IMG/VR virus record: IMGVR_UViG_2531839468_000021 | Reading direction: 5' to 3' (one strand) | Source of the DNA: a virus | Lineage: Duplodnaviria > Heunggongvirae > Uroviricota > Caudoviricetes | DNA: 11,620 nt | Part shown: positions 9,915 through 10,184 of the stretch, piece by piece | Numbering within the stretch: position 1 is the stretch's first letter | How the letters are laid out: each line of letters starts with the position of its first letter | Program-made: the position numbers and the translations under genes | The notes under the pieces: generated by a model | Told to the model about the DNA's origin: nothing | What the model saw: only the letters and a program-made list of their open reading frames with translations | Databases searched by the model: none

Positions 9915-10184
9915 ATGAACATACTAAAAAAACTTATGCAGCGTCTGTGCGGTTGCGGAAAGCATGATGGCTGTGAACACGGGCTGTCGCTTACAGCACA
10001 ACTGCGACTGGGGCCGGCAGACATTCTGGAGTCAGATGAGAATGGCATTATTCCGGAACAGGACGGGGTAATCACGCAGGTGGTGATACTGGATGCAGAT
10101 AAAAAGCAGATACAGTGTGTGGTAAGACCGCTGCAAATCCTGCGTGCTGACGGGTCGTGGGAAAATATTGGCGGAATGAAATAG
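9915..10184 (+). CDS. Small Cys/His-rich hypothetical protein (89 aa) at the position normally held by the tail-fibre assembly gene; function unknown, possibly a fibre-associated chaperone or accessory protein
   Basis: Strong RBS and a start 2 nt after the stf stop. Sequence MNILKKLMQRLCGCGKHDGCEHG… has no resemblance to lambda Tfa as I recall it. The six-frame ORF at 9783..10184 extends upstream into stf, but the RBS-supported ATG at 9915 is the likely start. Followed by a terminator. Confidence 0.55.
   Translation: MNILKKLMQRLCGCGKHDGCEHGLSLTAQLRLGPADILESDENGIIPEQDGVITQVVILDADKKQIQCVVRPLQILRADGSWENIGGMK

Follow-up and report, generated by a model that had tools for sequence, protein, structure and literature searches.

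A predicted stand-alone Phage_fiber_C protein encoded directly after the side tail fibre gene of a lambdoid prophage

The DNA analysed here, 11,620 nucleotides (nt) from the IMG/VR virus record IMGVR_UViG_2531839468_000021 (Caudoviricetes; hereafter, the window), covers the final part of a lambdoid prophage's late operon, and carries after its side tail fibre gene a small open reading frame (ORF) of 89 amino acids (aa) that almost certainly encodes a stand-alone Phage_fiber_C (PfC) protein, composed of a basic helix, a flexible linker, and a PfC β-domain. The small gene is an ordinary member of a catalogued family that already bears annotations and has been discussed in earlier publications, and the practical result is therefore negative: the protein belongs to a known family, and its striking Cys/His motif is a non-conserved feature of some alleles only. 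The module is nevertheless widespread (296 sequenced phage genomes, mostly Shiga toxin (Stx)-converting, with phage 434 also among the carriers), and GenBank entries disagree on the product of the small gene, which goes under at least four incompatible labels (hypothetical protein, tail fibre protein, alternate tail fibre tip, and tail fibre assembly chaperone). The way in which Stx phages adsorb and switch hosts would become clearer if it were settled whether this product serves as a second adhesin, helps in assembly, or provides spare parts. Our leading but tentative suggestion is that the small protein may be a dispensable, self-trimerising accessory partner of the fibre tip, acting as an extra or alternative head. 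The elements of the small ORF and of the fibre gene preceding it are as follows.

9915–10184, + strand: small ORF, predicted stand-alone PfC protein of 89 aa (PF06820, phrog_576, RefSeq); the peptide LGPADILESDENGIIPEQDR is part of its predicted product
9904–9908, + strand: AGGAG ribosome-binding site within the last codons of the fibre gene; spacing to the ATG, 6 nt
9921–9950, + strand: N-terminal basic amphipathic helix, residues 3–12, ILKKLMQRLC (AlphaFold2, alignment)
9948–9995, + strand: flexible linker with CGCGKHDGCEH, residues 12–27, the least constrained part of the protein
9996–10181, + strand: PfC β-domain, residues 28–89, paralogue of fibre residues 363–426
8600–9913, + strand: side tail fibre gene, 437 aa, EPclA type (Pfam PF08400, PF01391, PF06820)
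Fibre residues 1–133: PfN domain
Fibre, between PfN and collagen: Ala/Ser-rich coiled coil
Fibre residues 250–360, approximately: collagen Gly-X-Y repeats (repeats in the DNA were also found here)
Fibre residues 363–426 (nt 9686–9877): PfC knob, followed by an acidic tail of 11 residues

As read from the sequence, the small ORF starts with the ATG at 9915 and runs for 89 codons, with the TAG stop at 10182–10184. The fibre gene ends with TGA at 9911–9913, so that only 1 nt separates it from the ATG of the small ORF, and the AGGAG site is annotated as a ribosome-binding site in phage 434 as well. The tight coupling and the ribosome-binding site described in the original prediction were thus confirmed, as was the position of the ORF in the slot of lambda tfa; it closes the late operon ahead of the terminator, with its translation coupled to that of the fibre gene. 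Residues 28–89 match PF06820 over the entire profile (positions 1–64 of 64; 121 bits against a cut-off of 25; E = 2.7e-35), and the match to phrog_576 spans residues 1–89 of 89, the N-terminal extension included (E = 3.2e-58). RefSeq names the small gene 'phage tail fiber C-terminal domain-containing protein' and annotates near-identical genes in thousands of Escherichia coli prophages, the RefSeq proteins of 89 aa being 91–98% identical to the small ORF. Its PfC domain shows 37% identity over 62 residues to the fibre's own PfC (E = 7e-12), and the paralogy of residues 28–89 with the C-terminal PfC of the fibre had been overlooked in the original prediction. In the AlphaFold2 monomer (mean predicted local distance difference test score (pLDDT), 76.8), a helix is formed by residues 3–12, and the β-domain is predicted with confidence over residues 30–85. 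No family for the small ORF was found in the NCBIfam and PADLOC searches, and the sequence search against PDB chains returned nothing, even at E ≤ 10.

A HMMER search of the whole library of 1.84 billion representatives retrieved only 60 proteins, nearly all of which are E. coli-type copies or fragments; the stand-alone family is therefore narrow, being confined to Escherichia, Citrobacter, and Salmonella. A scan of genome contigs gave only two loci, which are near-identical. One of them, a 725-bp contig recorded under Xanthomonas pisi DSM 18956 (NZ_JPLE01000138.1), contains the end of a fibre gene and a small ORF, both of E. coli type (92–94% amino-acid identity to the window), and this E. 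coli-type sequence is most likely an assembly contamination.

The pairing of the small ORF with the fibre was surveyed in a phage collection, with a cut-off of at least 80% identity for each type of copy. A small-type copy was found in 296 records and a fibre-type PfC in 296 records, with an identical breakdown by organism; since the identity between the two types is only ~37%, each of the 296 records holds both copies. The carriers are mostly Shiga-toxin-converting phages, and include the long-tailed 434 and lambda_2B8 as well as short-tailed Stx2 phages (Sp5). With the region 8500–10400 (fibre plus small ORF) as a query, matches were obtained in 4,946 of the 5,426 complete E. coli genomes searched, with as many as 18 places in a single genome. 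In Salmonella lambdoid prophages, an orthologue of 79 aa follows a collagen-free fibre of 468 aa, consisting of PfN, a Phage_fiber_2 repeat, and PfC, and the fibre gene overlaps the orthologue by 23 nt; at a second Salmonella locus, a different PfC-ending ORF, also without collagen, lies upstream of the orthologue (loci examined, L002 and L085). The small ORF thus travels with PfC-tipped fibres and not with collagen as such. The co-occurrence with collagen-type fibres that had been envisaged therefore holds in part: the partner is a PfC-tipped fibre in 296 of 296 phage records, but it is not collagen-specific, as the Salmonella partner is collagen-free. Between E. coli and Salmonella, at saturated synonymous divergence, the identities are 59% for small-to-small, 43% for fibre-PfC-to-fibre-PfC, and 34–38% for cross-type comparisons, an orthology pattern pointing to an old duplication whose two products have since been kept together.

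An E. coli-type ORF of 89 codons with an ATG start is present in 80 of 80 IMG/VR loci, a sample picked by best match and biased towards intact copies, as well as in the further loci retrieved, and every E. coli-type locus for which upstream sequence is present shows the stop–1 nt–ATG junction and a PfC-ending ORF upstream. The ratio of nonsynonymous to synonymous substitution (dN/dS; Nei–Gojobori method, 61 distinct alleles) is 0.14 for the whole small ORF, 0.26 for its N-terminal 28 codons, 0.07 for its PfC part, and 0.29 for the fibre's own PfC, at a synonymous diversity (pS) of ~0.14. On these values, the small protein is under purifying selection that is stronger than that on the fibre tip, and the small ORF is a real gene, not a chance reading frame.

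Dispensability has been reported for a homologue: in the Stx2 phage Sp5, ORF68 (89 aa) follows the essential fibre gene ORF67 and is among the non-essential late genes, as judged by plaque formation and lysogenisation on K-12 (PMC5155283). It could be argued from this, and from the many carriers that are defective prophages (L and J are frameshifted in the window) and the several loci in which an intact small ORF stands beside a disrupted fibre gene, that the small ORF is a duplicate without function, kept only because it is carried along with the fibre gene in prophages that recombine rapidly. We regard this as very improbable, because a dN/dS of 0.07–0.14 at a pS of ~0.14, the invariance of start, ribosome-binding site, and length, and the retention of the pair in both E. 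coli and Salmonella despite saturated synonymous divergence, with the small copy being the better conserved, all argue against it.

The original prediction drew attention to a CGCGKHDGCEH cluster, which is indeed present at residues 12–22 and places Cys12, Cys14, His17, Cys20, and His22 inside 11 residues, but is not conserved. Among 84 E. coli-type copies, Cys20 is replaced by Arg in 55 and His22 by Asn in 15, and further variation occurs at positions 19, 23, 24, 25, 26, and 28, while Cys12, Cys14, and His17 do not vary. Ten residues of the His/Cys segment are missing from the 79-aa Salmonella orthologues (P0123, P0154, and P0157), and P0157 is devoid of any N-terminal Cys. The structure prediction that had been suggested as a check, confident for the β-domain, gives a pLDDT below 50 for linker residues 14–23 in the cluster region, with a program that does not model metals. 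The window allele itself has rare substitutions (L24, G51, and S81) in addition to the less common Cys20. The cluster is thus probably not meaningful as a conserved feature but a peculiarity of some alleles. What the N-termini of the E. coli-type and Salmonella small proteins have in common in the alignment is the helix pattern M-x-I-[LF]-K-K-[LI]; residues 1–18 carry a net charge of +3. Within the β-domain, Cys68 (10116–10118, in QIQCVV) is kept in the small-type copies of both E. coli and Salmonella and is Gly or Ala in the fibre-type PfC.

The readings put forward in the original prediction, namely a chaperone or regulator that would bind metal through Cys and His, or else a prophage-expressed moron, are consequently hard to credit. 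The five residues are there in the window allele, with the first three invariant in the 84 copies, and type III effector cargo adjoins the gene; however, the replacements of Cys20 and His22, the Salmonella deletion, and the predicted disorder of the cluster region all argue against metal binding. The reading as a small regulatory protein found no basis in the searches of Pfam, NCBIfam, and PADLOC, in which no DNA-binding, defence, or regulatory family matched the small ORF. For a short moron, a terminator is present but a promoter of its own is not: no promoter-like site was detected between the lom terminator and the small ORF (8583–9915), and the start codon lies 1 nt past the fibre stop. 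Neither a signal peptide nor a lipobox was found in the small protein, in which the longest apolar run among the first 25 residues is 5 and the maximal Kyte–Doolittle hydropathy, KD(9), is 0.63. Two related candidates were also rejected: a lipobox reading of L-C-G-C, since the hydrophobic core is lacking and the motif is missing in Salmonella, and a receptor-masking lipoprotein (T5 Llp or Cor-like superinfection exclusion), since there was no lipobox match and no PADLOC match.

The upstream fibre is identified as EPclA because its length of 437 aa and its domain boundaries are the same as those reported (PMC3368898). Ghosh et al. (2012) described the EPclA layout as PfN, coiled coil, collagen region, and PfC, and showed by size-exclusion chromatography with multi-angle laser light scattering (SEC-MALLS) that the isolated PfC, or PfC fused to thioredoxin, is a trimer (PMC3368898). 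PfC nucleates refolding of the collagen helix, the Col-PfC fragment refolds reversibly in vitro, and rEPclA, the Col-PfC fragment, and the isolated PfC each trimerise in E. coli without the small ORF (PMC3368898). Together with the non-essential status of Sp5 ORF68 (PMC5155283), these data argue against an obligatory chaperone role of the small protein. The remark in the original prediction that the ORF does not resemble Tfa was correct: no match to Caudo_TAP (PF02413, Tfa) was found in Pfam, even at E ≤ 1, and none in NCBIfam, in searches for which a Caudo_TAP relic of lambda_2B8 served as a positive control (109 bits for PF02413). This relic (L088 6807–7046; 79 aa) retains only the C-terminal half of Caudo_TAP (positions 56–130 of 131) and lies among effector genes, ~2.5 kb downstream of the small ORF, which suggests that an ancestral stf–tfa module was displaced by the PfC-type module.

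A non-essential role in assembly would accommodate part of these observations. As a substitute for Tfa that does not become part of the virion, the small PfC could, in the form of its free trimer or of short-lived mixed oligomers, template or accelerate in vivo the trimerisation and registration of the fibre's PfC and of the collagen or coiled-coil shaft. The small ORF lies where tfa would be, its translation is coupled to that of the fibre gene, its modules contain no intact Tfa (none in the window, and only the truncated relic in lambda_2B8), the curators of the phage 434 record chose the label 'tail fiber assembly chaperone', the gene is under purifying selection, and homology to the trimerisation domain of the client makes such templating conceivable. 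On the other hand, the EPclA proteins trimerise alone and Col-PfC refolding is reversible in vitro (PMC3368898), Sp5 ORF68 is listed as non-essential where the fibre is essential (PMC5155283), and the searches revealed no chaperone family, Tfa included, that resembles the small protein. Moreover, the small PfC is near-invariant and the fibre PfC is variable, the reverse of what would be expected of a chaperone matched to its client. An assembly helper is therefore unlikely in our judgement, though worth keeping in mind.

It has also been suggested that the gene provides an 'intragenomic reservoir' for fibre variation, in a study that found no frameshift signal (Mondal et al. 2016; PMC5155283), and the AU6Stx1 record annotates an 'alternate tail fiber tip'. 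The small ORF would then be a cassette at the DNA level, a spare PfC segment grafted onto the shaft by occasional recombination and thereby changing specificity. Natural recombinants do exist in E. coli assemblies: in P0061, the collagen shaft is fused directly to a small-type PfC at a GPA microhomology; in P0121, the N-terminus of the small ORF is joined to a fibre-type PfC; and in P0153, a frameshift read-through leads from the fibre PfC into the small ORF. They are, however, rare (1–4 sequences each, whereas canonical copies number in the thousands), no abundant fibre class with a small-type tip was seen among the search hits, and the two copies are not connected by DNA repeats or recombinase sites, nor by a reverse transcriptase or any frameshift signal. 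A silent cassette would have no use for the conserved ribosome-binding site, the ATG, and the N-terminal helix shared by E. coli and Salmonella, and a dN/dS of 0.07 would be surprising for it; together, these features indicate a function at the protein level. We thus consider a reservoir rather improbable. In several further cluster representatives, fragments of J, Lom, or NleG are joined to the small ORF. A diversity-generating retroelement, inversion, and programmed frameshifting were each tried and rejected, as no near-identical repeats, crossover sites, or slippery site link the tip copies: the direct repeats are those of collagen only, the inverted repeats are the terminator and two short ones, none flanking the tips, and both copies have the same orientation.

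We accordingly return to the suggestion of an accessory head on the fibre tip. In this scheme, the small PfC would self-trimerise into a small knob, as the fibre's PfC does, a proposal made by analogy with the trimeric state of the isolated EPclA PfC (PMC3368898). The knob would be made in step with the fibre, through the same late transcript and translational coupling, and would be attached non-covalently at the fibre tip as an extra or alternative head, possibly by docking of the basic N-terminal helix onto the acidic tail that follows the fibre's PfC. Such a head would modulate adsorption or host range, while the small protein would not be needed for fibre folding and metal binding would not be a conserved function. 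The dispensable, non-chaperone character is proposed because rEPclA trimerises alone and Sp5 ORF68 is among the non-essential genes. Stacking of the two knobs is plausible on two grounds: the charges are complementary in both lineages (+3 for the small N-terminus, and −1 to −3 for the fibre tails), and in P0148, a collagen-containing, fibre-like protein of 565 aa (metagenome/genome representative), the collagen region is preceded by some four PfC-like repeats in tandem, with the pattern WEF-L-DG...KTVVVL...ILRVR-ADG-W-EIPA, so that the PfC module can evidently stand in series.

Several points weigh against this scheme. The deletion phenotype of Sp5 comes from K-12 under laboratory conditions only. 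The text of a preprint on phi24B by cryo-electron microscopy and proteomics mentions none of gp60, gp59, and gp58, the candidate phi24B homologues, and the distal fibre domain is not resolved in its cryo-electron microscopy structure. In addition, the fibre's PfC varies more than the small PfC. Such conservation is unusual in a receptor-binding head that faces a varying host, and could instead indicate a conserved partner internal to the phage. Literature searches on locus tags, on virion proteomes listing the small protein, and on the phage 434 genome yielded nothing usable, and collagen, Tfa, chaperone, and assembly are not mentioned in the paper on Gifsy-1 Stf. As a bolder variant, the tip of every PfC-tipped fibre of Stx and lambdoid phages might be split into two knobs: the small trimer would dock non-covalently on the fibre PfC trimer, its basic N-terminal helices meeting the acidic C-terminal tails, and form a second, highly conserved head for a surface ligand that is itself conserved. 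A ring of Cys12, Cys14, and His17 in E. coli alleles might then act as a metal or disulphide clasp across the chains. We hold this split tip to be improbable on balance, yet if true it would represent a new way of constructing fibre tips, in which the tip's own paralogue is used, and an unrecognised adsorption determinant of Shiga-toxin phages.

The remainder of the window has the gene order tape-measure; M, L, K, I, and J; lom; fibre; small ORF; hairpin; and an effector-like gene on the opposite strand, with the following features.

7887–7906: terminator-like hairpin, on the other side of lom
7936–8535: lom
8562–8583, + strand: terminator-like hairpin in the lom/fibre interval, an annotated terminator in phage 434
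10198–10222, + strand: intrinsic terminator-like hairpin with a T run, 14 nt past the small ORF, at the end of the late operon
10412–11620, − strand: type III effector-like ORF of at least 402 aa, running off the window

Antitermination by Q is well established in lambda, and is the basis for reading late transcription here. The two hairpins bracket lom in agreement with the phage 434 annotation, and thus define lom as an insulated unit inside the late operon; given the hairpin at 8562–8583, antiterminated late transcription would be the sole route to the fibre gene and the small ORF. The hairpin matching 10198–10222 is annotated as a terminator in phage 434, and is found also 3′ of the Salmonella orthologue. 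L is split over two frames (Phage_tail_L positions 1–122 in the ORF at 2428–3054, and 120–206 in that at 2844–3125), and J (4474–7868) passes from frame 1 to frame 3 near 6414–6483, within the Ig_J domain; since L and J are each divided between frames, the prophage copy is probably defective, or the sequence contains indel errors. The tape-measure gene also appears to be broken, with the TMP_2 ORF ending at 456 and an ORF with TMP_4 and Tape_meas_lam_C (456–2102) in another frame. The fibre gene and the small ORF are intact in the window despite the split of L and J. The ORF at 10412–11620 occupies the usual exchangeable effector locus past the tail fibre genes; it has no significant Pfam match and no NCBIfam family, and is a hypothetical protein in most RefSeq genomes, while its 3′ part (10298–10800) shows 94% identity to an 'EspV' pseudogene stretch of E. 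coli O145 RM12761. An antisense ORF of 261 aa (9290–10075, − strand) covers the collagen repeats and the start of the small ORF, and most likely reflects the G+C-richness of the repeats coding for Gly-X-Y rather than a gene. No Rfam match was found anywhere in the window.

Among known systems, the closest to the small ORF are the stand-alone PfC genes Sp5 ORF68, 434 CPT_434_24, lambda_2B8 gp24, and AU6Stx1 'atfT', whose products are likewise of 89 aa and 91–96% identical; they share with the window the stop–1 nt–ATG junction with the fibre gene and the terminator, and nothing substantial differs. The PfC of EPclA/EPclB has in common with the small ORF the Pfam domain and the predicted β fold, whereas the small protein is only 37% identical to it, has neither a shaft nor the PfN tail-attachment domain, and possesses its own N-terminal helix and linker, as well as Cys68 in place of the Gly or Ala of the fibre copies. 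In phage Mu, the distal domain of tail fibre gpS (PDB 8ju3) gives a weak score, with no detectable link between the sequence families, and is carried within a long fibre, unlike the stand-alone small protein. Lambda Tfa and the tail fibre assembly proteins of Mu and P2 resemble the small ORF in gene position, since the late operon ends with their gene and the side tail fibre gene immediately precedes it; the small protein is half the size of Tfa, has no sequence similarity to it, and is homologous to the fibre tip rather than to the chaperone family. Mu-type Tfa remains on the fibre tip, providing a precedent for a tip-bound accessory protein. Two-protein or branched receptor-binding fibres are represented by the T2-type gp38 adhesin on gp37 and by LtfA/LtfB of the T5-like phage DT57C; such partners are not known to be paralogues of the tip domain of the fibre, and are much larger. 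By analogy, the separately encoded distal head of gp38 and LtfA/LtfB would be the same working principle as that proposed here for the small PfC protein.
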